Sequence record: MT782071.1 | Direction: 5' to 3' (one strand) | DNA: 64,000 nucleotides | From: Escherichia phage JN02 | Shown here: one piece after another, positions 2,529 through 33,173 of the stretch | Layout: every line of letters starts with the position of its first letter | How positions within the stretch are numbered: position 1 is the first letter of the stretch | The notes under the pieces: generated by a model | Databases searched by the model: none | What the model was told of the DNA's origin: nothing | What the model saw: only the letters and a program-made list of their open reading frames with translations | Position numbers and translations under genes: made by a program

Positions 2529-3629
2529 TTACGCTGTGAAGATTTTATCCCACATCGCAACAACTGCATCTCGATTATACTTCTTCCATACTGCTTCAGC
2601 ACGTTTAACTCGAGCTTCGTACGTGTCAGTGAATTCTAATACAGCTTTTGTGTAAAGCGCAACTACTTCTTTCTTAGGAGTAGAGGAATCAATTTCTACA
2701 CGCACAGTATCTGGGTCGTATTCGAATGTCGCATGAGGATAATCCTTAAAAACTAACTGGATTACAGGGACACCTTTAGAGATGGCTTCAATAGAACTAT
2801 TCTCTACCGTACCTGTGTCAGGACACGTATTAATAAGTGCTTTAGCTGTTTTAAGACGTTCCATGATTTCACTGTGTGGAGCATCAATAATAACAGGATA
2901 TTTAGCTGGTGGTGCCCATTTACTAGGACAGTATCCTACACCATTTTCGCCTAGTGCTTTAATCGCTTCAAGAGCAACATCAGTGCGACGCATTTTAGTG
3001 TCATAACGTTGTGCACTAATAATCAAATCAGTCGCCGGAAGAACTTCAGGTTTTTCAGTCAAACAAATAACCGGATAATCTTCGGCTTCAAACAACGGAT
3101 TTGCTCGCCAATAATCATAATCAATTTTGTCAGTCAGACCTGAAGTCATATAACAATATTTGCGTTCAAATTCACGGAAGGCTTTAGTGGGAGCATAACT
3201 CTTACCACCATTCTTATGAATTTGAATAGTCTGATCCCAAATTTGAACAATGCCACGAGATACCGGTTCAAATGGTGTTGCCATAAAATTCTTATGAACT
3301 TTAGAGAGACCTGCGTCTTTAATTGCCTGAACGGTTAGTTTAGTCGGTTCCATAGTAACAACAAAATCGTATTCATGGATGCCGGCTAGTTCAACAATCT
3401 TACGAGCCATAGTATAACTCATACCTAGACTGAATTTAGTCAGATGTCCAACAGGGTGGTGTGTAACTTTCCAGTCACCAAACATGTCATTATCAAAACC
3501 GATATAATCAATATCAGCACCAATAGAAACTAAATATTTCAACACATTTAAATGTACTGCTTCAAGGCCACCTTGTACACGGTCAGGATTAAATGGGACT
3601 GCGCGAGATGGGATAAACATAACTTTCAT
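2529..3629 (-). CDS. GT-B fold glycosyltransferase (GT4-like), candidate DNA sugar transferase
   Basis: 366 aa; N-terminal MKVMFIPS...GGLE and C-terminal TGTVENSSIEAISKGVPVI resemble GT4 donor-binding motifs; occupies the T4 gene 60/mobA position. Confidence 0.6.
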   Translation of the reverse strand: MKVMFIPSRAVPFNPDRVQGGLEAVHLNVLKYLVSIGADIDYIGFDNDMFGDWKVTHHPVGHLTKFSLGMSYTMARKIVELAGIHEYDFVVTMEPTKLTVQAIKDAGLSKVHKNFMATPFEPVSRGIVQIWDQTIQIHKNGGKSYAPTKAFREFERKYCYMTSGLTDKIDYDYWRANPLFEAEDYPVICLTEKPEVLPATDLIISAQRYDTKMRRTDVALEAIKALGENGVGYCPSKWAPPAKYPVIIDAPHSEIMERLKTAKALINTCPDTGTVENSSIEAISKGVPVIQLVFKDYPHATFEYDPDTVRVEIDSSTPKKEVVALYTKAVLEFTDTYEARVKRAEAVWKKYNRDAVVAMWDKIFTA

Positions 3630-7870: not shown

Positions 7871-8398
7871 TTAAGCTTTACGAGGAGACACATAGCGAGT
7901 GATTTCAGATTCTTTAACAACTCGGAAGTCACCTAAGAATACGATATTGTATAACTTTTCACCATCTTCAACCCATTGGTCACTAATGAAGCCACACATA
8001 ATATCAGTTTTGCTTGGATATCCGTATTCGTCGATGTAATCAAATTCTTTATCGGTCTGGAATTCAACGCCTTTGCAAAGGGCCCATTTAAACTGTGTAG
8101 TAGGCTCAACGATATCGTTTGAAGCAAATTGGACTCGTATATGTTTTTCAAGGAATTTAGGACTTACGTAAGCATACTGGGCATCTTGTCCGCCAAAACT
8201 AGGAATGATTCGAACTTTAACTTCTTTAATACGTCCCATGCCATTTGTGCGAAGTCCGACAACTTCAACCAGACGACCTGCGGCTTTAGACCGGGATGCA
8301 GTTGATACACGTTTAATTTCACCAATAGTAATCATAATTTTTCTCTCTTTGTTTAAGTTGAATTCATTATACTCCATCCATCCTTGGATGTACAACAT
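7871..8398 (-). CDS. hypothetical protein, member of tandem paralog triplet
   Basis: 175 aa; motif DQWVEDGEKLYNIVFLGDFRVV. Confidence 0.45.
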   Translation of the reverse strand: MLYIQGWMEYNEFNLNKERKIMITIGEIKRVSTASRSKAAGRLVEVVGLRTNGMGRIKEVKVRIIPSFGGQDAQYAYVSPKFLEKHIRVQFASNDIVEPTTQFKWALCKGVEFQTDKEFDYIDEYGYPSKTDIMCGFISDQWVEDGEKLYNIVFLGDFRVVKESEITRYVSPRKA

Positions 8399-8934
8399 TA
8401 ATTTAGAATATTAACTACTGCACTACGTGGAACCACACTAAAGTCACCGGCATGAACAACGTTCAGAAGTTCAACCCCGTCTTCAATCCACTGGTCAGTT
8501 ACCCAGCCACTTACCGGTCCAGCGAATGGTCGACGAATTGAAACTGCTTTACACAACAAGTCTGTAGGCTCAATAGGCTTAATCAGAGTACCGTACATAC
8601 AAGCGATATCCATATCAAAGTGGAGACCATCTTTAACAGGTGCTTCTTCAATCAACAGTTCAAAGTCGGTGCTTGGAAGGGCGGTAGTAGAAATTGTACC
8701 GTATGAATTTTTAATTTCTAAGAATAACCAAGGGCCTTCAACTTGTTTGATGAAGTTAACAATAGTGAAACTATTACCTTGAGTGGCACCTAAAATTTCA
8801 CAAAACTTTTCATAAGCTCGCACTGAAGCACCGTACCAGTTGATTTGTTTTTCGTCTTTCAGGATGTAAGTAGCCGTAGTATTGATATTCATAATGTTTT
8901 CCTGTTTGGTTAAGATAGAAAGATTATACTCCAA
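8398..8934 (-). CDS. hypothetical protein, member of tandem paralog triplet
   Basis: 178 aa; motif DQWIEDGVELLNVVHAGDFSVV. Confidence 0.45.
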   Translation of the reverse strand: MEYNLSILTKQENIMNINTTATYILKDEKQINWYGASVRAYEKFCEILGATQGNSFTIVNFIKQVEGPWLFLEIKNSYGTISTTALPSTDFELLIEEAPVKDGLHFDMDIACMYGTLIKPIEPTDLLCKAVSIRRPFAGPVSGWVTDQWIEDGVELLNVVHAGDFSVVPRSAVVNILN

Positions 8935-15277: not shown

Positions 15278-15814
15278 TTAGTAACCATTATCCTGACGTT
15301 CAAAGTTGTGTTGGTTTTTCAAGTAGTAAAGTTTAAAGATTTCTTCTGCTGTAAGACCAAGACCCTGGAACATATTCAGAACGAAATGAAGAATATCAAT
15401 CATCTCGAATTTAATTTCAAGCTGGTCTTCAGGAGACAGTTCATCGATACGACGATTTCGATATTCAGCATGTTGTGCTTTCCATGGCTTCCATACAGAG
15501 CTAGCGGCTTTTTCACCATTGCTCATACCACCAAGTGAAGTCAGCAGTTCACGGAATTCATCATCAATATAATCTTTCTGATTACGCAGCCAATCAACAA
15601 CATCGCCGGCAGTGGCCAATTCATCAGGATGTTTGTTATGTTCAGGCTTGTCATTTGCCAGACGAACCTGTAAAGATTTCTGCATATCAAGCATTACCTG
15701 CAGAGGGTCTTTATCTTCGTGAATCAGAGCATTAAAATAAGCTTCTTCTGCTTTATCAACACCAGAAATAAGTTGTGAACATTCGTTAAAGTGTGCCATT
15801 ATTTTTCCTTTCAA
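15278..15814 (-). CDS. 56: dCTP pyrophosphatase (MazG-like)
   Basis: 178 aa at the T4 gene 56 position between soc and 61; call rests on size and synteny. Confidence 0.75.
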   Translation of the reverse strand: MKGKIMAHFNECSQLISGVDKAEEAYFNALIHEDKDPLQVMLDMQKSLQVRLANDKPEHNKHPDELATAGDVVDWLRNQKDYIDDEFRELLTSLGGMSNGEKAASSVWKPWKAQHAEYRNRRIDELSPEDQLEIKFEMIDILHFVLNMFQGLGLTAEEIFKLYYLKNQHNFERQDNGY

Positions 15815-23873: not shown

Positions 23874-24422
23874 TTAACGAGCCCATTTGATAATTTCTGT
23901 AATCAAATTATTACGTTCGCTTGCATTAAATCCTATAACTTTGTTAGCACCATCATGATTAAGTAATTGATATGTTTGGATTTTGTTATGAATTGCAAAC
24001 TCTTCAAAATATGAAATGACTGTATTAAAACCGAATGAAGACAAAGTAATAAGGTCGTCTTCAAAACTTTCAGTCATTTCGTTACGTGTTAAAATAATTG
24101 TGAACACATCATGGGTTTGGCAAAGACGAACATAATCCTGTTCATAAACGTCAAGAACAGAGTCCGCATCTTGTCGAATACGTCCATAAACCCAGTTACT
24201 AATATATCCACGGTCTAACAGATAAATCTTAGTAGGGTCTAAATAATTCAACATCGTTTCGAAACAGCCAACTTCATTTCGAGACTTAACATCGAAACGT
24301 CCATCAACCGTTCGTTTAGGGAAATCAATCTTTACATATCTTTCACTAATTTCCATTATGTCATTAATGAAAGTTGTTTTACCAGCATTATCTGGGCCAT
24401 CTACTAAAATAATTTTAGCCAT
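23874..24422 (-). CDS. P-loop kinase, thymidylate-kinase-like
   Basis: 182 aa; Walker A GPDNAGKTT at N-terminus and LLDRGYIS resembling the TMPK DR(Y) motif; occupies part of the T4 beta-gt locus. Confidence 0.5.
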   Translation of the reverse strand: MAKIILVDGPDNAGKTTFINDIMEISERYVKIDFPKRTVDGRFDVKSRNEVGCFETMLNYLDPTKIYLLDRGYISNWVYGRIRQDADSVLDVYEQDYVRLCQTHDVFTIILTRNEMTESFEDDLITLSSFGFNTVISYFEEFAIHNKIQTYQLLNHDGANKVIGFNASERNNLITEIIKWAR

Positions 24423-24423
24423 T

Positions 24424-25323
24424 TTATTCCTCGATTACGACATCTTCGTATTTAGGTATATTATACGGTGAAGAAATTAAAGCATTAAAGTAGATGAACT
24501 CGCCAAGACCTGGATGGAATACTTCTTCAGGATTTTCGAAATATTGAATCTTCGGCCGTCCTTTAAGAATTTGATAGTACTCAGTTTTAGTTGGTTTAAA
24601 AATTCGAATCAGCGCTTCTTCAGGATACTTATTTCTATCGAAGCTATTATTTGGATCGGTTACATAAAGCGGTTGACCTAATTGAATTGCACATTCAACC
24701 ACTTGTTCAAAACGATAGCACGGGTCACTAATTCGAAATGGATGAAAAATACCATCTAGATGAATAGGAGCCAAATCACCTACAAGACGCTGCATAATGG
24801 AAGGACGTATAACTTTCTGGGTTACGATAATCTTATTACCATCTGCACCTGCGTTAACCAGCACTTCCTTTTGACGTTCATTCAACACAGTAGTTTGAAG
24901 TGAACGATTAACCGACAACATATCAGTTTTTAAGAATTCGTCAATATAAAAACGTGGTTTATTAGGGTCTGCAGTGATATTGAAATTGAATTCTACGTCA
25001 AAAGTGCCGTCATATCCAGTGATATCTGTGATTAGAAAATCACAATCATAATAATCAATTAATGAATCAACCACAAATTCATTTTCAGACCAGAAATATT
25101 TACGAGTGTTATACGCGTTATCTTTATACCATAATGGAACAAACTTAAATTCTGGGAAAAGACGTTCACATTCTTTAATATCAGATGCATTACGTGGATA
25201 TGTAATCACATCACCCGGATTAGCACGGTGCAAATGAAGTTGGAAGTTGCCATCCTTAAGGATAGCATACTCTCCAGTTTCATAAGACCGCATACTCAAG
25301 ATAGGTACGCGGAAAATAGCCAT
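24424..25323 (-). CDS. hypothetical protein at beta-gt locus (candidate DNA-modifying transferase)
   Basis: 299 aa, no motif I recognise; immediately downstream of gene 42 where T4 has beta-glucosyltransferase. Confidence 0.35.
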   Translation of the reverse strand: MAIFRVPILSMRSYETGEYAILKDGNFQLHLHRANPGDVITYPRNASDIKECERLFPEFKFVPLWYKDNAYNTRKYFWSENEFVVDSLIDYYDCDFLITDITGYDGTFDVEFNFNITADPNKPRFYIDEFLKTDMLSVNRSLQTTVLNERQKEVLVNAGADGNKIIVTQKVIRPSIMQRLVGDLAPIHLDGIFHPFRISDPCYRFEQVVECAIQLGQPLYVTDPNNSFDRNKYPEEALIRIFKPTKTEYYQILKGRPKIQYFENPEEVFHPGLGEFIYFNALISSPYNIPKYEDVVIEE

Positions 25324-26039
25324 TAGTCAAGGAATCCTTTAACATAATCAAAATCACGTTCAAACACATGGGCACTTACCATGGTATGAGTATAATCACC
25401 AACTTCTACACCACATTCGTTAGCGATATAATGAAGTAATTTTCCTTGGAGATAAAAATCCAACTGCATAACAACAGCACAGTTCTGAGAACGCATATGA
25501 CAGTGGGTATAAAGCTTACCATCGCGAATATAATAAGTCGCCGAGTCAGTACATGGATATTCAAGCGTTTCGTCCGAATCAAGCAAAGCCTGATCAGAAC
25601 TTTCTAGAATTTGGAACACAACTCTTCGAGAGTTAGGTTTATCTTTAAGTTCTTTTAGAAGAGCTGGTAATTGGGCCGCAATGCGAGGACCATAGAAAGT
25701 GTTGAAGTTCGCCGGCAAAACATCTGATTTTGGTTTAGAAATAAATTTAGCAACGTTAGGATATGCCTTAAAGGCTTCTTCTGCATCAGTTCCGCCAGAA
25801 ATCATAAATTTCCAGAAATCTTCAGCATATTCATAAGAGATGCGGTTAATACGTGGGTCGGTCATTTTGAATGATGATGGAGTGTCAACAACTACTGTCA
25901 TAGACCCAATTTCATTACAACGTCCAATACGAGAATCAGTTACGAATTCCGGGTTTTCTAAAATCTCACGATTGACTGCTTTAAATGCGGATTGAAAATC
26001 TGCGGCTTTAATATATTTCATTGTGTTATGTTTTCCCAT
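25323..26039 (-). CDS. 42: dCMP hydroxymethylase (thymidylate synthase family)
   Basis: 238 aa; YPCTDSATYYIRDGK...MRSQN aligns with the T4 gp42 catalytic-Cys region as recalled. Confidence 0.8.
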   Translation of the reverse strand: MGKHNTMKYIKAADFQSAFKAVNREILENPEFVTDSRIGRCNEIGSMTVVVDTPSSFKMTDPRINRISYEYAEDFWKFMISGGTDAEEAFKAYPNVAKFISKPKSDVLPANFNTFYGPRIAAQLPALLKELKDKPNSRRVVFQILESSDQALLDSDETLEYPCTDSATYYIRDGKLYTHCHMRSQNCAVVMQLDFYLQGKLLHYIANECGVEVGDYTHTMVSAHVFERDFDYVKGFLD

Positions 26040-26080: not shown

Positions 26081-26320
26081 TTATTTGAATTTCTTAGCGA
26101 TGTTGATATAACGTAGAGCTTCGGCATCAATACTTCCAAGGACACTATGAAGGAATGCGTCGGCATAGTATTCTAGTTGAACAGGTTCTTTAATCGCTTT
26201 AGCCGCTTTAGTTTCAAACAGGCCCATAAGGGCCTTTTTAAGAATTTGTTCGTTAGTGTTCAGTTTAATAGTCAAAATCTCTTCGTTAAGTTTATAATTA
26301 AAACTTTTTCTAGAAATCAT
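26081..26320 (-). CDS. hypothetical small protein
   Basis: 79 aa; not hydrophobic, so not an Imm homolog. Confidence 0.35.
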   Translation of the reverse strand: MISRKSFNYKLNEEILTIKLNTNEQILKKALMGLFETKAAKAIKEPVQLEYYADAFLHSVLGSIDAEALRYINIAKKFK

Positions 26321-27477
26321 TCCGGGTACCTCAAAGCGTCATCAGAGTTAGTTATATCAATAATAGATATGGAGTTTTCTGCTAACCCGTTTTTAGATAA
26401 TTGACGTTTATAATACCTTTCACAATATGTACACGTTGACCCACAGATTTCATTAGCACAATCGAAATCTGGATGTCTGAACCACCTTTTTTCTAAAAAA
26501 CCATCCAACAAAGAGGTTTCAATATTTACCGTATGTGAAAACTCAGTCTCATTTTCAAGAGTGAAAATAGTCTCTAAAGGCTTCCACAATTCCAACAAAT
26601 TACCTTCAAACTTTTCAGAAGCGTATGCTTCAAGAACTTTCAAAATGTAGTCGGTGCTACCTGTACGTCCTGAAACTTTGAATTGAGTGATACCAATATC
26701 ATTATAAAGTTTCAAATCTTGTGGACGAACAAAACGAGTTCTCAACCAGTTAAATGGGTCTGTATCACGAGCTTTAATACAGTGCTGCATAGGATATCCA
26801 TTTAAGGATTTAGCATCATCAGCTGTAACATCAGTACTATGGAAAATATAGCAAGAGTCACGATAGCTACAATGTGTTGTATACCCTTTACCAGCATTAG
26901 AACAGAACTCATTTACAAGAACTTCAAATATTATATTGTTCTTATTGCAAAACTCTGCTGCACGCTTCAGGAAAGAAACTGAACGGTTCTTATGAATTCC
27001 ACAGCAGACCTTTTTGATATTATACTGGTCATGTAAGTATTTGATTTGAGTTACAGCATCGACATGTAAAATTGTTGAAACTTCAATCTCAATGTCTTTA
27101 TTGACTTCACGAACAATTTCCATAACAACAGGGTTAGCGATAGTAATACGCCATACGCCTATTGACCAAAGATACTGAACATAGTCCTGAATAGCTTTCT
27201 TCTTCCACTCAACTAGTTCTCTTTTTGAACCAGGATTTATCGTGTTGAGTGTATAGTTAAAGCAAATACCTAATTCGTTACAACGTTTAACGTAATCTTC
27301 TAACATCTTTTTGTCAACGTCAGGAAGCCTAAAATCAGGTCTGGCTGCTACAAAAGCCATTTCTCTTGTAGAGCCATATACTTCGTTTATCAAGCTATTA
27401 GGATAAGTTTTATTGAGCTCTACGATTTTATCAAGAAGAGCTAAATCAAAATTCGTTCCGATTTTAAAAGTATTCAT
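26317..27477 (-). CDS. Cys-rich hypothetical protein in sugar cassette
   Basis: 386 aa with clustered Cys (KVCCGIH, EFCSNAG...HCSYRDSC, C-terminal CANEICGSTCTYC); no confident family. Confidence 0.35.
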   Translation of the reverse strand: MNTFKIGTNFDLALLDKIVELNKTYPNSLINEVYGSTREMAFVAARPDFRLPDVDKKMLEDYVKRCNELGICFNYTLNTINPGSKRELVEWKKKAIQDYVQYLWSIGVWRITIANPVVMEIVREVNKDIEIEVSTILHVDAVTQIKYLHDQYNIKKVCCGIHKNRSVSFLKRAAEFCNKNNIIFEVLVNEFCSNAGKGYTTHCSYRDSCYIFHSTDVTADDAKSLNGYPMQHCIKARDTDPFNWLRTRFVRPQDLKLYNDIGITQFKVSGRTGSTDYILKVLEAYASEKFEGNLLELWKPLETIFTLENETEFSHTVNIETSLLDGFLEKRWFRHPDFDCANEICGSTCTYCERYYKRQLSKNGLAENSISIIDITNSDDALRYPE

Positions 27478-27532
27478 TTTTTTGCATCTCGCGTTAATTG
27501 TGCGATGGTTTTTGCAGGTCTTACTTAAATTA

Positions 27533-27934
27533 TTATAGATTCGGTTTATATGATTTAAATGTTTCGAATTCGCCTTTATTCATAAGAGCTTTGAATTCGT
27601 CAGGACGCATAGCTTTGTCGTCGATAATCCAATCATATACTGGTTTATGTGTTAGCAAATTATGGTACTTCAAGCCAATGTTTGCCAAGTTCTGAATAAG
27701 ACTTGGGAGAATGTCAATTGCTATACGACCAGGACCTACTGACTTCATACCGCGAGCAGTGTAAAGCGTTATGGTATGCCCTGCATCATACAGGGCATTA
27801 ATGGCAGATACCATTTCGACGTCTGGTTTGAAGTTCACGTAATCACGATTGTTATTCCACTCTGTTATACAATCATCGACATCAAAACAAAGATTAAGCA
27901 TGTTTTCTACACGGTGCATTAGATTCGTTCCCAT
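27533..27934 (-). CDS. HAD-superfamily phosphatase (small)
   Basis: 133 aa; motif I FDVDDCIT, T/S motif TLYTAR, Lys HKP, motif IV IIDDK; start probably at an internal Met. Confidence 0.6.
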   Translation of the reverse strand: MGTNLMHRVENMLNLCFDVDDCITEWNNNRDYVNFKPDVEMVSAINALYDAGHTITLYTARGMKSVGPGRIAIDILPSLIQNLANIGLKYHNLLTHKPVYDWIIDDKAMRPDEFKALMNKGEFETFKSYKPNL

Positions 27935-29604
27935 TGATGAGTGATATCGCCACCGATTGGACGATAGGAAACACCAGTTTCTTTATCAGTTAGTACCCAT
28001 TTACCAGGATTTTTTGTAATCAGAGTAGCCGTTACAGGTTCTGCTACGTCATAACTAATAGAGCCGTCTTGAAGTACACGGCCCATGTTACGTAATTGCT
28101 TAGTCAGAAGTTCCATACCTTTATAATATGCGGCTACCGCTTTAAGTGGATTATTCTTGAAATAACCACCTAATGCAATCCAGATAATTGCTACAGCCAA
28201 ATGATGATACTCGTTAAATGAACTCATCTTTCCATATTTGTAAATTAATGGATTGATGTTAATAGTCACATTACAAGTTGTTTCGTCAATAGTAAACTGT
28301 CCCCAGGTCGGATTAGCGTTGAATTCATCATAACCTGAAACAGCATAAAGCACTTTAGCTTCATCGTACAATTTTGGCCCGTAAATCTTGGTTTCACCAA
28401 AATATCCACGAGGGTCGATAAACTTGACTTCGCCGTTATCAGTAATCATAGTATTACTGAAGTTCGGGTCACCATGAATAACAGAGTACTGTCCCTGAGA
28501 ACGGTTATGATAACGAATAAGGTGTTCTAAAGCTTGTTTCAACATTGGCTTCAGACGCCCAATCTTAGTGTAGTTCACATGTGTGATTTTACCAAATGAA
28601 TCAATCAATGGTTGAATACTTTCACAACGATCAATAACTTTCGTATAGAATTCTTTAGTGAAATCACGACGAACAGTTTCAGGACTTACAAAATAAGTGT
28701 CTGTGCTGAATTTCAGTGCATCTAAAATTGCATCAACAATTTGCGGACGAGCAAGACTCGATTTGGATTTAATATATTCAAATGCCGGCTTACCTTTAAT
28801 GCGTTCCATTTCAAAGTTATTTTCATTAACAGAAACTAACTGAGGAACTGAATCTGATTTCACTTTAAGATACCATGAAATCTCATCTTTCTGAAGAGCT
28901 CGGCCCTGTTCGGTTAATGCGAATTTAGTTACAGTTTCTTCACCAATTTCAACTGCATTAAAACTACGATTAAGTTCACGAACTTCATGAGCTTTTTCAA
29001 GTTTAGGCATATCACCTAAATCAATTAGATTCATAAGCTCTGATTTATTGAATGCGCCGCTGTAAAGGAATTCTACGAAATCACGTCCTTTGCAGTATTC
29101 ATGAATTTCCTCATCAGTAGAACCCATATAGAATTCCCAGTCTTTGAACTGATAAATTCCTACAACATTACCACCTGTTGAACCTACGTTAGTGATATTT
29201 TCACCGTCGAAATTATATCGACATTCGTCACCCTTAACATAGATTGCGTTAACATTCCAAGACCATGAACCAAAATCAGGAATAATATCACACCAGTTAA
29301 CAATTACATTATGGCCGTCTAAATCTTTATGTAATTTAGCAAGAGCATAAGCAGAACCATACGCTTCATCAACTGTACGAATAGTCACATTGAACCCTTC
29401 TTGCTCACAATAAGCTCGAACAGTTTCAGCAAATTTTGAATGAACTACTACAATAATTTCATCTGCGCCAAGGTCAGAATAAATTGTATACAAATTGCTC
29501 AGAATAGTGTCTTGTTTATAGTTAACAAGCACCTTAGGAATATGATGCGTTATTGGATACAAACGAGTTGCCAGTCCAGCACCAAGAATAACAGCTTTTT
29601 TCAT
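27919..29604 (-). CDS. bifunctional sugar-1-phosphate nucleotidyltransferase / anomeric sugar kinase
   Basis: 561 aa; N-terminal AVILGAGLATRL (G-x-G-T-R nucleotidyltransferase motif); C-terminal VIHGDPNFSNTMI...FIDP (APH/choline-kinase-type catalytic loop). Confidence 0.65.
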   Translation of the reverse strand: MKKAVILGAGLATRLYPITHHIPKVLVNYKQDTILSNLYTIYSDLGADEIIVVVHSKFAETVRAYCEQEGFNVTIRTVDEAYGSAYALAKLHKDLDGHNVIVNWCDIIPDFGSWSWNVNAIYVKGDECRYNFDGENITNVGSTGGNVVGIYQFKDWEFYMGSTDEEIHEYCKGRDFVEFLYSGAFNKSELMNLIDLGDMPKLEKAHEVRELNRSFNAVEIGEETVTKFALTEQGRALQKDEISWYLKVKSDSVPQLVSVNENNFEMERIKGKPAFEYIKSKSSLARPQIVDAILDALKFSTDTYFVSPETVRRDFTKEFYTKVIDRCESIQPLIDSFGKITHVNYTKIGRLKPMLKQALEHLIRYHNRSQGQYSVIHGDPNFSNTMITDNGEVKFIDPRGYFGETKIYGPKLYDEAKVLYAVSGYDEFNANPTWGQFTIDETTCNVTININPLIYKYGKMSSFNEYHHLAVAIIWIALGGYFKNNPLKAVAAYYKGMELLTKQLRNMGRVLQDGSISYDVAEPVTATLITKNPGKWVLTDKETGVSYRPIGGDITHQWERI

Positions 29605-29645
29605 GTTGTGGTCCTCATTGGTAAGTAGGAGTATTGTACACTATT

Positions 29646-29789
29646 CTAGTTAAAGCATTCATACTTTGCTTGTAGTCCAATCATAATCCATCCGATTATG
29701 AGAGTCGGAATCATTACTGGAGCCGTTAAGCTCCAGTAGATAGTCATGACAAGCATCAATAGTAAAAGTCCTATTGTTATTGCTTTCAT
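29646..29789 (-). CDS. small hydrophobic peptide (47 aa), below the ORF-track cutoff
   Basis: MKAITIGLLLLMLVMTIYWSLTAPVMIPTLIIGWIMIGLQ...; ATG overlaps the upstream stop (TAATG). Confidence 0.35.
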   Translation of the reverse strand: MKAITIGLLLLMLVMTIYWSLTAPVMIPTLIIGWIMIGLQAKYECFN

Positions 29790-30421
29790 TATTCGCCTCG
29801 TAACATGGCACCTAGTGCACCACCAGGGTGGAACTTAAGGAAGTCATTAGAGGTAAATCCACGTTCAGACGAAAGGTTGATAGCGAACGTATCGATAAGC
29901 GCTAACAACAATGTAGTAGACATTGTCGGAGCTAAAGAGTTCTCGTCAACTTCTACCGCGATGCCTGTACAGAAAGAGTAATCAAAAAGGGCTTCATTTT
30001 CTTGCGGAATGTCAGGGTTACAATGTAACAGAATCTGTTTAACCTGAGGACGAATCATACGAAGATGTTTAGCAACACCTATCATTTCTTCGGTCTTACC
30101 AGAACGACTAATATGAATCAACACATCATTAGGCGCAATGAATCCTGCATCGCCGTGAGAATAATGCCCGGTGTTCAAGTACATACTCGGGATACCGAGT
30201 GAAGCAAATGTCTCAGAAGCTTTAGTTGCAATATTAGCATTCTTACCAACACCTGTAATAATTACTCGGCTTTCATAATTGCTAAGTCCTGGGCGTCGAA
30301 GAGTTTCTAGAATAGCATTATAACGAGCAGGGTTTTGACTAATTACTTTGGCCATAGCGGCCAAAGAAGAAGCTTGTTTTACGATTGCGTCAATAGCGAT
30401 AGTAATAGGAGTAGTTTTCAT
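29789..30421 (-). CDS. SIS-domain sugar-phosphate isomerase, arabinose-5-phosphate isomerase-like
   Basis: 210 aa; VIITGVGKNANIATKAS, HGDAGFI, ISRSGKTEE and APTMSTT...FLKFHPGGALG match KdsD/GutQ/KpsF SIS signatures. Confidence 0.7.
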   Translation of the reverse strand: MKTTPITIAIDAIVKQASSLAAMAKVISQNPARYNAILETLRRPGLSNYESRVIITGVGKNANIATKASETFASLGIPSMYLNTGHYSHGDAGFIAPNDVLIHISRSGKTEEMIGVAKHLRMIRPQVKQILLHCNPDIPQENEALFDYSFCTGIAVEVDENSLAPTMSTTLLLALIDTFAINLSSERGFTSNDFLKFHPGGALGAMLRGE

Positions 30422-30461: not shown

Positions 30462-33173
30462 TCAAAAATCGAACATATCGAACAGAGATGCTTTCTTCTC
30501 GTAATCGAGTTTCGCTGCTGATGTGAATCCTTCAAGTGGTTTAATAAATGTCTTCTCAAGGAGAACAGTGTAGTCCATCCAATGAAGTACGTCGTCTTTA
30601 ATTAAATCTGTGATTTCAGTACCAGAAGGCCATGCGATACATTTATCACCGAATGGGTTTCCTTCACGTAAAGGCAGAACATATACTTTTTCACCTTCTA
30701 CAACTTGTGGAGCATCAATATTACCTTTGATAGCCCGGTTATACGTCAGAATTCCACGAATATGGAACGGACATTTAGGACCAGGGAATCCACCTACATC
30801 ATATTTATCAATGTTATTCGCAGAAGATACTGACGCGATGCTAATATAATTCAATTGACGGAATTCTTTTTCAAACTCTTTAAAATATTCTTGTAATGAT
30901 TCTTCACCTTCTTGAAGCATACGACGAATACATTCTTTAAGAGCTTTCTGTACTGCTTTAGGAGTCGAAGATTTCTGCGTTTCGAGACCCATGATTTTAA
31001 GCTTAGGTTCAGCGTAACGAGTACCTTCCATATCCCACACGTTTAATGCATAACGTTTCTTACCAGTCCAGAATCCACCAATACCTTTAGAACCGAGCGG
31101 AGGACCAGCGATAGCTTCTCGGTCCATGAACATTAAGTGTTGTTTATTGTTCATGTATTCACACATTTCACGGAAACCTCTATCAATAGCTGGTTCCATA
31201 CGTTCACGTGCAAACTTATCTAAGAAGTCTACCCAATGGTTGGTATCACGGAATTTAGATTCACCAACCTTATCGATAATTTTATCAGCAGATACGTAAA
31301 TAGAGTCTGTATCACCATAAAGAACGAAAGCTTCTCCTTCTGTACCACAAACTTCATTCAGATATTCATTAACTTTACGTTCAATCCACTGTAAAGCCAT
31401 TTGACCAAATGTTGTGATTGCAGTAGCATTACGCAAATCATAATAACGGAACCATACGTTACCAAGTGCACCATAAAGCGAGTTGATAAGCAATTTACGG
31501 TTAATTTGTGCAGTCATACCTGCAACTTCAGTACGTTGAGCTCTGAACAACATTTCATTAAGAGATTTAGCAGACAACTTTTTAATCTTTTCTTTAATCT
31601 CGTCAGTGAAGTCGAAACGATAATCAACATCTAATGGTTCGTCAACAGAAAGATTAGGATTATGCAATGCCTCTTTAATTATTTCACCGTTACGTTGAGC
31701 TGCAAGCATATAACCTTTATGTTCTTTACGTTGATTAAAGACCTTAGTGATTTCAGTTGGAACTACACCGTCACGGTCTTTATAATACATCATGCCGTTA
31801 GGAGAGCAACTGTACACATCTGAAGGACGTTCAGCAACAGCGTTAATATAATCATGCAGTGGAGCTACTTTAAACGTTCCTGCTATTGTTTCTGGGCTAA
31901 TATTCACTTGGCGAATAATACTTGGATACAGAGATGTGAGGTCGAAGCTCATCACATATTTGTATCGATTTGGGATAGGTTCCTTAACAAAAGCACCAGG
32001 ATAAGGTTGAACCGGGTGAGAACGACCTTGTGGAATCACCTTGTTTTGCTCTTTAAGGCTATTAAAAATAATAGCATCCCATGTTTTAATTGGGCTAAAC
32101 ACAGATTGAATCTGTATCTTAGCATAATAACCCATGTCCAAGCTCAAGTTAATGAACTGACGTTTACCATCAATTTGTAATACACGATACACGTCGATAA
32201 TGTTATAAGAAATATATCGTTGGTGATTGCTTTCACGAAGCTTAGAAATAGGGCCGTCATATTTCAGTTTACCGACGTTCAATTCAAATTCTGAAATGTA
32301 ATCCAGAGAATACGACGGTTGATTAGTAAAAGAGAATTTTTTGTAAAGGTCAATGTAATCAAGAACAGAGATACCGAACAATGTAATGATTTCACGAGAA
32401 CCATACATGTTTTCGATAACTTTAACACGAGTTTTACGATGTGGTGATAAACGTTTCGCAGTAGATTCGCCAAAAATATTCTTGATTCGGTTATACACAT
32501 ATGGAATATCAAATGACTCAACGTTCCATCCGGTTAAAATGACAGGAGTTTTCTGTTGCCAGAAGTTGAGATATTCCATCAACAATTCTTTTTCGTTATC
32601 GAACGGCATATAAATGATTTTATCGATAATTTCGGATGGAACTTCATCACCACCTTGTTCTTGAAGCTTAGCCGCAATTTCGATAGACCATTCTTCCACA
32701 TTACCGTATGGAGAATTCAAAAGGTCAAATACGTAGAACCTGTCGTCAATTGAGTCATAATGGGTGATAGCATCAATTGGATGTTTTGCTTGTGACGGCT
32801 CAGGGAACCCATCCGGAGATGTTACTTCGATGTCGAAGTTAGCCACACGAATTTTTGTATGGTCGTATTTGATTTCATAGTTATAAGTGTCAGACAAATA
32901 CGCCAATTTGAAATCGTCCATGCCAAGTGCTTCAAGTCCGATATCTTCCATGCGTTTAATCCATTGGGAGGCATCACGCATATTGGCGAACAACTTACGA
33001 GTACACGGCTTACCGTAGATATCGAAATATTTCGTAGCCTGACTTTCTGGACAATGAGCAAACAGTGATGGTTTATATTCTACTTCACGAGTACGTTCAC
33101 GGCCATTAGAATCGATGTAACGTTCAAAAATTGAATCACCAATCTGTTCAACCGTTAAGTAAAATTCTTTCAT
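30462..33173 (-). CDS. 43: DNA polymerase (family B) with 3'-5' exonuclease
   Basis: 903 aa; matches the RB69 gp43 sequence as recalled (MKEFYLTVEQIGDSIFERYID...), with Asp at both exonuclease positions; YGDTDS motif. Confidence 0.97.
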   Translation of the reverse strand: MKEFYLTVEQIGDSIFERYIDSNGRERTREVEYKPSLFAHCPESQATKYFDIYGKPCTRKLFANMRDASQWIKRMEDIGLEALGMDDFKLAYLSDTYNYEIKYDHTKIRVANFDIEVTSPDGFPEPSQAKHPIDAITHYDSIDDRFYVFDLLNSPYGNVEEWSIEIAAKLQEQGGDEVPSEIIDKIIYMPFDNEKELLMEYLNFWQQKTPVILTGWNVESFDIPYVYNRIKNIFGESTAKRLSPHRKTRVKVIENMYGSREIITLFGISVLDYIDLYKKFSFTNQPSYSLDYISEFELNVGKLKYDGPISKLRESNHQRYISYNIIDVYRVLQIDGKRQFINLSLDMGYYAKIQIQSVFSPIKTWDAIIFNSLKEQNKVIPQGRSHPVQPYPGAFVKEPIPNRYKYVMSFDLTSLYPSIIRQVNISPETIAGTFKVAPLHDYINAVAERPSDVYSCSPNGMMYYKDRDGVVPTEITKVFNQRKEHKGYMLAAQRNGEIIKEALHNPNLSVDEPLDVDYRFDFTDEIKEKIKKLSAKSLNEMLFRAQRTEVAGMTAQINRKLLINSLYGALGNVWFRYYDLRNATAITTFGQMALQWIERKVNEYLNEVCGTEGEAFVLYGDTDSIYVSADKIIDKVGESKFRDTNHWVDFLDKFARERMEPAIDRGFREMCEYMNNKQHLMFMDREAIAGPPLGSKGIGGFWTGKKRYALNVWDMEGTRYAEPKLKIMGLETQKSSTPKAVQKALKECIRRMLQEGEESLQEYFKEFEKEFRQLNYISIASVSSANNIDKYDVGGFPGPKCPFHIRGILTYNRAIKGNIDAPQVVEGEKVYVLPLREGNPFGDKCIAWPSGTEITDLIKDDVLHWMDYTVLLEKTFIKPLEGFTSAAKLDYEKKASLFDMFDF

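Follow-up and report, generated by a model that had tools for sequence, protein, structure and literature searches.

How a phage of gut bacteria makes 5-hydroxycytosine without oxygen, while the known hydroxylase for this base consumes O2, is the question raised by a block of six co-directional open reading frames (ORFs) on the minus strand of Escherichia phage JN02 (sequence record MT782071.1). The window, which is the whole stretch of 64,000 nucleotides (nt) analyzed, is the left end of a genome of the Mosigvirus type (RB69-like T-even phage), and the ORFs fill its positions 26081..30421 exactly at the coordinates and in the direction given by an initial annotation (ORF listing), which had proposed a sugar-nucleotide pathway. 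The sugar-nucleotide cassette is already known (Thomas 2018; Mahler 2025; He 2026; Lee 2026), and JN02 adds one more Mosigvirus genome that carries it. Its 386-amino acid (aa) protein is the only part left unexplained by the accessible literature, the functions of a 47-aa and a 79-aa protein aside; He et al. 2026 and Mahler et al. 2025 lie outside that literature.

We propose an explanation in two modules, which as a whole we consider probable. The first is the published arabinose pathway, and from the gene content it very probably works in JN02 as published. The second is the 386-aa protein, a member of the U32 family, for which the evidence leans towards a role as O2-independent hydroxylase for DNA modification. 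Possibly together with the 79-aa protein coupled to it, it would be a [4Fe-4S] enzyme of the RlhA/TrhP/UbiU-V type that hydroxylates a pyrimidine at C5 without O2, with the oxygen taken from prephenate. Prephenate would be supplied by host PheA/TyrA in JN02, and by a phage chorismate mutase in most other genera. In favor of an anaerobic route, the known hydroxylase, a thymidylate synthase (TS) homologue encoded beside the block, needs O2, yet these phages infect gut bacteria. Enteric phages could then form the acceptor base either with O2 or without it, a duality that parallels the TrhO/TrhP and UbiIHF/UbiUV pairs of E. coli. The narrower claim, to which we give an even chance, is that U32 is the first prephenate-dependent, O2-independent hydroxylase serving DNA hypermodification, providing an anaerobic route to 5-hydroxycytosine parallel to the TS homologue and acting as the only hydroxylase in a set of distant phages referred to below as PolIII-alpha-type.

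The 386-aa U32-family protein

The initial annotation had described the 386-aa product as a Cys-rich protein without giving it a role. Ten Cys are indeed conserved across 121 homologues, down to 48% identity, and the protein belongs to the Peptidase_U32 family (Pfam PF01136, E 7e-11; 42.2 bits versus a cutoff of 22.4). Its AlphaFold2 (AF2) model has a pLDDT of 92.8 and its top solved match is the U32 protein 5d88 (E 7e-7), to our knowledge the only solved U32 structure. Sequence search against PDB chains gave no matches, and comparison of the model with BFVD (Foldseek) returned Mosigvirus orthologues and generic TIM barrels only.

Two of the cysteines, C192 and C209, are invariant in the 121 homologues and align with C169/C176 of UbiU, C169/C176 of RlhA and C170/C177 of TrhP. 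Towards the C-terminus, C345, C349 and C352, all invariant, align with C580, C611 and C614 of RlhA across long gaps, the spacing being CX4CX3CX2C in the phage protein versus CX7CX30CX2C in RlhA. In RlhA, 5-hydroxycytidine formation requires C169, C176, C580 and C611 (PMC5727448), and in UbiU, C176 has been shown to ligate a 4Fe-4S cluster (PMC10990095). A profile of the phage family, compared with the E. coli U32 proteins, matched RlhA with an E-value of 1.6e-5 over 205 columns, TrhP with 2e-3, UbiU with 7e-3 and UbiV with 0.16, so that RlhA is the closest E. coli paralogue by this comparison. Among the curated equivalog models for UbiU, TrhP and RlhA, the sole match was to UbiU (E 8.9e-4; 18.5 bits versus a cutoff of 440). 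As the protein falls under all equivalog cutoffs, it represents a separate subfamily and is no orthologue of UbiU, TrhP or RlhA.

With RlhA (ho5C2501), TrhP (ho5U34) and UbiU/UbiV, the phage protein shares the U32 domain, the motif Cys pair and a genetic linkage to prephenate supply, and its C-terminal Cys cluster may be RlhA-like. It differs from them in its length of 386 aa, in six more conserved Cys, in a context of DNA-precursor and glycosyltransferase genes, and in its predicted deoxynucleotide or DNA substrate. Across genera no other protein of the block is as conserved, its identity being at least 80% versus 42-72% for AfhE, the kinase/nucleotidyltransferase of the cassette. The record of Escherichia phage OLB35 splits U32 into proteins of 269 and 108 aa (BFVD A0A3G3MCS7 and A0A3G3MCT7), probably through a frameshift or a sequencing error in the record.

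Gene neighborhoods and host distribution of U32

DAHP synthase is the entry enzyme of the shikimate pathway and chorismate mutase makes prephenate; genes for both were found beside phage U32 genes. In Serratia LC53, Enterobacter Entb_45, Yersinia TG1 and Serratia 92A1, the small gene between U32 and the TS homologue encodes an AroQ chorismate mutase. These phage enzymes match CM_2 above threshold (E 8e-9 to 1.7e-11), and their residues R11, R28, K39, E52 and S84 are invariant in comparison with the PheA and TyrA domains of E. coli. Chorismate mutase is present in 61 phage records, roughly all of the 68 U32 carriers outside Mosigvirus, and its distribution follows U32 and not the TS homologue, since it is absent where U32 is absent (Acj61 and JS10 loci). 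Furthermore, the unrelated metagenomic phage contig L017 shows the gene order GT1-isomerase-AfhE-U32-DAHP synthase, where GT1 is arabinosyltransferase 1; the gene directly after U32 (8145-8891) encodes a DAHP synthase, with an E-value of 2.6e-70 versus 2.9e-17 for KDO8P synthase. We know of no earlier description of DAHP synthase as a phage auxiliary gene.

Nine relatives of U32 that are 48-58% identical were found on long metagenomic contigs, on which 4-8 kb of flank per side was examined. All nine sit in modules of replication and nucleotide metabolism, and their neighbors include genes for dCMP deaminase, dUTPase, UDG, DNA pol III alpha, primase and RecA, as well as thymidylate-kinase-like genes. 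In five loci of the PolIII-alpha type, the stop codon of a GT1 homologue overlaps the start of U32 (hhalign 98.9%, E 1.8e-17 versus the 299-aa GT1 of JN02). No ThyA-type hydroxylase was found within the 4-8 kb flanks of the nine loci, and the simplest reading of these gene contexts is that U32 would supply the hydroxyl group in these phages.

Some of the metagenomic loci show further genes. Radical-SAM proteins are encoded within a few kb of U32 in L005 (1-249), L006 (12160-13185), L022 (4980-6011) and L023 (4972-6000), three of the four with a SPASM domain, and in L022 and L023 the radical-SAM gene lies directly upstream of the GT1-U32 pair; these neighbors fit oxygen-sensitive chemistry in PolIII-alpha-type phages. 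An 86-kb metagenomic contig (L006 7185-15428, and L007) has two U32 paralogues, the second of them weakly TrhP-like, accompanied by genes for NT5C, a nicotinamide mononucleotide transporter, a deoxynucleoside kinase, a radical-SAM/SPASM protein and a nucleoside deoxyribosyltransferase-like product. This set may belong to a different nucleoside-modification system.

A TS-type hydroxylase was found in 345 phage records, 221 of which also carry U32. Among these TS-type carriers, every record from Klebsiella, Proteus or Yersinia phages has U32, as do 136 of the 176 Escherichia records; U32 was found in none of 57 Acinetobacter phage records and is absent from the Acj61 locus. Acinetobacter is a strict aerobe, and every named U32 host is a facultative anaerobe. 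The distribution fits an anaerobic back-up for the O2-requiring enzyme. Isomerase, AfhE, phosphatase, TS homologue and transferases are encoded without U32 in the Acinetobacter phages DLP3 and Acj61 and in the E. coli Dhakavirus JS10, and therefore U32 cannot be needed for the synthesis or transfer of the sugar.

The arabinose cassette of JN02

The features of the cassette and of related genes in the window are as follows, with coordinates, strand, predicted product and basis of assignment.

30462..33173, minus strand: gp43 DNA polymerase, 903 aa, the upstream boundary of the cassette (syntenic with RB69p056)
29789..30421, minus strand: arabinose-5-phosphate isomerase, 210 aa (SIS/KpsF-type profiles, RB69 gp55 homologue)
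29646..29789, minus strand: hydrophobic membrane peptide, 47 aa (phrog_3610, coupled to the isomerase)
27919..29604, minus strand: AfhE-like kinase/nucleotidyltransferase, 561 aa (NTP_transferase and kinase-like C-terminus, RB69 gp52:53)
27533..27934, minus strand: AfhF-like HAD phosphatase, 133 aa (TIGR01689, FDVDD, RB69 gp51)
26317..27477, minus strand: U32-family protein, 386 aa (Pfam Peptidase_U32, RB69 gp50)
26081..26320, minus strand: helical protein, 79 aa (phrog_8601), within the interval of the initial annotation and undescribed there
25323..26039, minus strand: 5-hydroxy-dCMP synthase, the TS homologue called "gene 42" in the initial annotation (Thymidylat_synt E 5.5e-15, RB69 gp48)
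24424..25323, minus strand: arabinosyltransferase 1 (GT1), 299 aa (RB69 gp46:47 homologue)
23874..24422, minus strand: thymidylate-kinase-like nucleotide kinase (97.8% identity to RB69 gp45; weak dTMP-kinase P-loop match)
15281..15799, minus strand: dCTPase, gp56 homologue (tblastn, 97.7% identity to RB69 gp28)
2532..3629, minus strand: arabinosyltransferase 2, outside the interval first noted (tblastn, 98.6% over 366 aa to RB69 ORF003c/gp3)

From gp43 down to the kinase gene, the intergenic spacings are 40, -1, 41, -16, 55, -4, 41, -1 and 1 nt, and the six-ORF block itself has gaps of at most 55 nt and three overlaps. The 210-aa and 47-aa ORFs meet at TAATG with a one-nt overlap, in agreement with the initial annotation, which had regarded the membrane peptide as translationally coupled to the isomerase; the 386-aa and 79-aa ORFs overlap at ATGA. 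Both overlaps are as expected for candidate translational coupling. The block and the 903-aa polymerase were matched at no less than 95% identity in about 150 phage records, with phage GADS24 the closest (98.4%), so the cassette is no chance arrangement. The JN02 proteins are 97-99% identical to gp45-gp55 of RB69, except for the 79-aa ORF (89.9%). A scan for sigma-70 promoters and terminators showed no enrichment (24 found versus 27.3 expected), and no T4 late promoter TATAAATA was found within the cassette. The RB69 reference record splits the gene of the 561-aa enzyme (ORF053c/052c) and that of GT1 (ORF047c/046c), which Lee et al. attribute to sequencing error (PMC13326640); both ORFs are intact in JN02 (561 and 299 aa), in agreement with that explanation.

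The enzyme families claimed by the initial annotation, a SIS isomerase, a fused nucleotidyltransferase/kinase and a HAD phosphatase, agree with profile searches and motifs; placement of the 210-aa and 561-aa proteins in unrelated families, which it had named as refuting, did not result from the profile searches. The 210-aa protein matches Pfam SIS (E 2.6e-10) and the kpsF (E 4.8e-32), KdsD (E 1.3e-30) and GutQ (E 1.1e-22) models (Pfam/NCBIfam), covering positions 2-153 of the 268 of the kpsF-type profile with 111.6 bits versus a cutoff of 203.7. It has neither the C-terminal tandem CBS pair nor a full-length, above-cutoff match to KpsF, KdsD or GutQ, and it is a SIS-only relative of these isomerases; it is 98.6% identical to RB69 gp55, for which conversion of ribulose-5-phosphate to arabinose-5-phosphate is proposed from structural matches (PMC13326640). 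The 561-aa protein starts with an NTP_transferase domain (residues 3-99, E 8.5e-10) that has GAGLATRL close to the N-terminus and matches the NCBIfam MurU model (E 1.7e-5); a Foldseek match to the MurU-like 4y7t is reported (PMC13326640). Its C-terminal part shows HGDPNFSN at 377, as in the catalytic loop HGDxxxxN, and DPRG at 397, with weak Fructosamin_kin, EcKL and RIO1 matches at residues 344-409, every one below cutoff (Pfam). Its identity to RB69 gp52:53, equated with AfhE of HY126 by Lee et al. (PMC13326640), is 98.6% for one half of the split protein and 99.4% for the other. The 133-aa protein matches the EcbF/BcbF capsule-biosynthesis phosphatase model TIGR01689 (E 4.3e-13; 49 bits versus a cutoff of 162), has the HAD motif I FDVDD at 17-21 and is 99.2% identical to RB69 gp51. 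It is named 'phosphoheptose isomerase' in RefSeq records and PHROGs (phrog_1238) despite its DxD phosphatase motif, and this name looks like a propagated misannotation.

As early as 2018, the genes between polymerase and uvsX were put forward as a UDP-arabinose module (PMC6024577), and biochemical work on it has followed (PMC13326640); the doubt of the initial annotation as to whether these enzymes had been characterized is thus superseded, and the record of the BASEL phage AlbertHofmann already bears a UDP-arabinose annotation. The overall purpose it proposed, from ribulose-5-phosphate through arabinose-5-phosphate to a nucleoside diphosphate (NDP)-arabinose for phage DNA, is upheld by the identity to RB69 and the published chemistry. 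The order of the steps, given as dephosphorylation followed by 1-phosphorylation, does not hold: in HY126, according to PMC13326640, which cites He et al. 2026, AfhE phosphorylates arabinose-5-phosphate at C1 to the 1,5-bisphosphate, AfhF removes the 5-phosphate, and AfhE acts again as pyrophosphorylase to make UDP-arabinofuranose. Following this order, the SIS isomerase of JN02 would convert ribulose-5-phosphate to arabinose-5-phosphate, the C-terminal kinase of the 561-aa protein would phosphorylate it at C1, the 133-aa phosphatase would take the 5-phosphate off arabinose-1,5-bisphosphate and the N-terminal nucleotidyltransferase would make UDP-arabinofuranose, from which the two glycosyltransferases would place arabinose onto 5-hydroxycytosine in DNA.

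The initial annotation had named hydroxymethylcytosine as acceptor. According to Lee et al. (NAR 2026, PMC13326640), RB69 DNA contains mono- and poly-arabinosylated 5-hydroxycytosine, ether-linked, as determined by nuclear magnetic resonance (NMR) and mass spectrometry (MS). The statement of the initial annotation on arabinosyl-hydroxymethylcytosine in RB69 was therefore right in the arabinosylation, and the base was so described in 2018 (PMC6024577); the base itself has since been shown to be 5-hydroxycytosine. RB69 gp48, the TS homologue, binds flavin and makes 5-hydroxy-dCMP with oxygen from O2, as shown by 18O2 labelling (PMC13326640). Rather than a hydroxymethylcytosine enzyme, the adjacent "gene 42" product is 98.3% identical to RB69 gp48 (4 substitutions) and carries the 5-hydroxy-dCMP synthase signature, its E160, C163, N186 and D194 corresponding to the published L143E/C146/D169N/N177D (E. 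coli ThyA numbering) in an ungapped register anchored on the catalytic Cys; the gapped MAFFT register (ThyA 168-177) disagreed with the published signature. The signature segment is the same as in RB69 gp48 but for A167V, which lies outside the signature. The JN02 protein is also 99.2% identical to its counterpart in AlbertHofmann/Bas47, a phage reported with arabinosylated 5-hydroxycytosine (PMC13326640), and it would be the source of 5-hydroxycytosine, making 5-hydroxy-dCMP with O2 and flavin.

GT1 has no Pfam match; its identity to RB69 gp46:47 is 97.2% for one half of the split protein and 99.1% for the other. Table 1 of PMC13326640 assigns GT1 a GT-B fold and the transfer of the first arabinose, and lists both the gp45 kinase and the dCTPase. 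The role of arabinosyltransferase 2 is given in PMC6024577 and PMC13326640. The dCTPase would supply dCMP and keep unmodified dCTP out of the nucleotide pool.

Genes and gene order in JN02 are the same as in the arabinosyl-5-hydroxycytosine pathway of RB69, HY126 (Afh genes), DLP3, Bas46/47 and LC53, and nothing material differs. ADP-heptose synthesis, in which GmhA is a SIS isomerase, HldE a bifunctional kinase/nucleotidyltransferase and GmhB a HAD phosphatase, follows the same logic of a SIS isomerase, an anomeric kinase that yields a bisphosphate, dephosphorylation by a HAD enzyme, and a nucleotidyltransferase in one protein with the kinase. It differs in using a heptose, ADP and a ribokinase-like kinase, whereas the phage uses a pentose, UDP and an APH/choline-kinase-like kinase, and none of the JN02 cassette proteins reached the curated cutoffs of ADP-heptose families (NCBIfam); a GmhB-type Foldseek match for the phage phosphatase is reported by Lee et al. 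(PMC13326640). The initial annotation had compared the kinase/nucleotidyltransferase pairing with the AmgK/MurU salvage of N-acetylmuramic acid. An APH-like anomeric kinase and a minimal MurU-like uridylyltransferase are indeed common to both; however, AmgK/MurU acts on a free sugar with two separate proteins, whereas the phage enzyme is fused, uses a sugar 5-phosphate and needs a phosphatase step, and the overall logic is closer to that of ADP-heptose. T4 gp42 with the alpha-/beta-glucosyltransferases resembles the phage system in the position between gp43 and uvsX, in the modification of dCMP by a ThyA-family enzyme and in sugars added after replication; nevertheless, T4 gp42 carries out a folate-dependent hydroxymethylation that leaves a hydroxymethyl bridge, whereas the RB69 type shows flavin/O2 hydroxylation, an ether link and a phage-made sugar donor. 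The fused kinase/nucleotidyltransferase has distant homologues, at about 27-29% identity, in the jumbo Vibrio phages D482/D491s/D527, in Synechococcus phage S-SRM01 and in Chryseobacterium phage MA9V-2, which suggests that the same fusion may underlie other phage NDP-sugar pathways.

The two small proteins of the block belong to families of unknown function. The 79-aa ORF (phrog_8601; AF2 pLDDT 63) is the least conserved gene of the block and is cut to 49-58 aa in several relatives, and it keeps an invariant YYxDAFxHS motif out to Yersinia and Serratia phages. It was considered as a diverged chorismate mutase and rejected, since it gave no CM_2/Pfam match even at E 10 and an hhalign probability of 0.6% versus the phage chorismate mutases, and since in Yersinia TG1 and Serratia 92A1 it adjoins a separate chorismate mutase. 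The 47-aa peptide (phrog_3610, E 4.5e-27) is also found in LC53, TG1, JS10 and RB69 (ORF054c), and none was detected in the Acj61 and 92A1 loci. A relationship to Imm was rejected, as identity to Imm proteins is only 20-23%. In JS10 (L013 5322-5432), a member of the 47-aa family is located upstream of the gene in the isomerase position and next to a true Imm gene; since this arrangement differs from that of JN02, the position of the 47-aa gene relative to the isomerase varies between genera. The peptide is probably not part of the pathway chemistry.

Alternative roles for U32 and implications

Several other explanations of the U32 gene were weighed against an anaerobic hydroxylase. The published pathway might suffice, with U32 as an accessory redox enzyme on a sugar or heterocycle, or as a dispensable passenger, and no role in the hydroxyl group. 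RB69 gp50, the counterpart of the 386-aa protein, is labelled 'sugar or heterocycle reductase' in Table 1 of PMC13326640 and otherwise undiscussed, the cassettes of DLP3, Acj61 and JS10 lack U32, and AfhE and AfhF are reported to be sufficient from arabinose-5-phosphate onward in that paper. However, phages without U32 reach the same product, which speaks against an accessory enzyme of sugar synthesis or transfer, a passenger is not expected to surpass the rest of the block in conservation and to retain ten conserved Cys, and either version leaves the chorismate mutase, the DAHP synthase and the coupling to GT1 away from any nearby TS-type hydroxylase without explanation; we consider it unlikely. 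It is quite improbable that U32 copies host RlhA or TrhP and hydroxylates host or phage RNA (23S rRNA C2501 or tRNA U34), tuning translation in infection. Its closest E. coli paralogue is RlhA, with a cysteine architecture in common, and the known substrates of this branch are RNAs (PMC5727448, PMC10990095), but the gene always lies among genes for DNA precursors, replication and DNA glycosyltransferases, is coupled to GT1 in five distant loci, and encodes 386 aa versus the 653 aa of RlhA, most of whose residues 260-560 have no counterpart in the alignment.

The pathway as first annotated, in which dephosphorylation and an AmgK/MurU-style C1 phosphorylation lead to an NDP-pentose that is donated to hydroxymethylcytosine made by gp42, is very improbable. 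The enzyme families fit it, the order with dephosphorylation first still stands in Table 1 of PMC13326640, and arabinosyl-hydroxymethylcytosine was described in 2018; against it are the NMR/MS evidence for the ether link and the 18O2 labelling of the RB69 gp48 product (PMC13326640), the D169N signature of the JN02 TS homologue and the kinase, phosphatase, pyrophosphorylase order of HY126. Hardly more credit is due to the annotation of U32 in most GenBank records as a true collagenase-type peptidase ('peptidase', 'collagenase-like protease', and 'peptidase' for phrog_5757): these names go back to the family label, the characterized E. coli members are implicated in hydroxylation (PMC5727448, PMC10990095), and the conserved Cys, the nucleotide-metabolism context and the link to the prephenate pathway have no rationale in a protease.

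An O2-independent hydroxylase is the reading that we favor, and the following points weigh against it. The substrates known for U32 hydroxylases are RNA and quinone precursors, with neither mononucleotides nor DNA among them, and the phage role, including the choice between dCMP and DNA as substrate, is one that we wholly infer. JN02 and the other Mosigviruses encode no chorismate mutase, so the link to prephenate is indirect in JN02. The pathway is also encoded by E. coli Dhakaviruses (JS10), which have neither U32 nor chorismate mutase, and thus U32 is not universally required in enteric hosts. The argument from host distribution is statistically weak because it rests on few independent clades. 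On the distant contigs, a TS-type hydroxylase may lie beyond the 4-8 kb flanks. The alignment of the C-terminal cysteines to RlhA, which spans long gaps, could be fortuitous. The reductase label of gp50 points elsewhere, and the discussion of Lee et al. cites the RlhA/TrhP hydroxylation pathways with no mention that gp50 is a member of the same family (PMC13326640). In the accessible literature, neither U32 nor chorismate mutase is connected with RB69-like phages, and no anaerobic route is proposed; He et al. 2026 and Mahler et al. 2025 may assign or exclude a role.

If U32 is such a hydroxylase, prephenate-driven hydroxylation would be extended from RNA and quinones to DNA precursors, and the conservation of its gene above all others of the block would be explained. 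The 'peptidase' annotation would be corrected in many of the about 220 phage records that carry U32. O2-dependent differences in restriction evasion between phage genera would also be predicted, which would be relevant to phage therapy in the gut.

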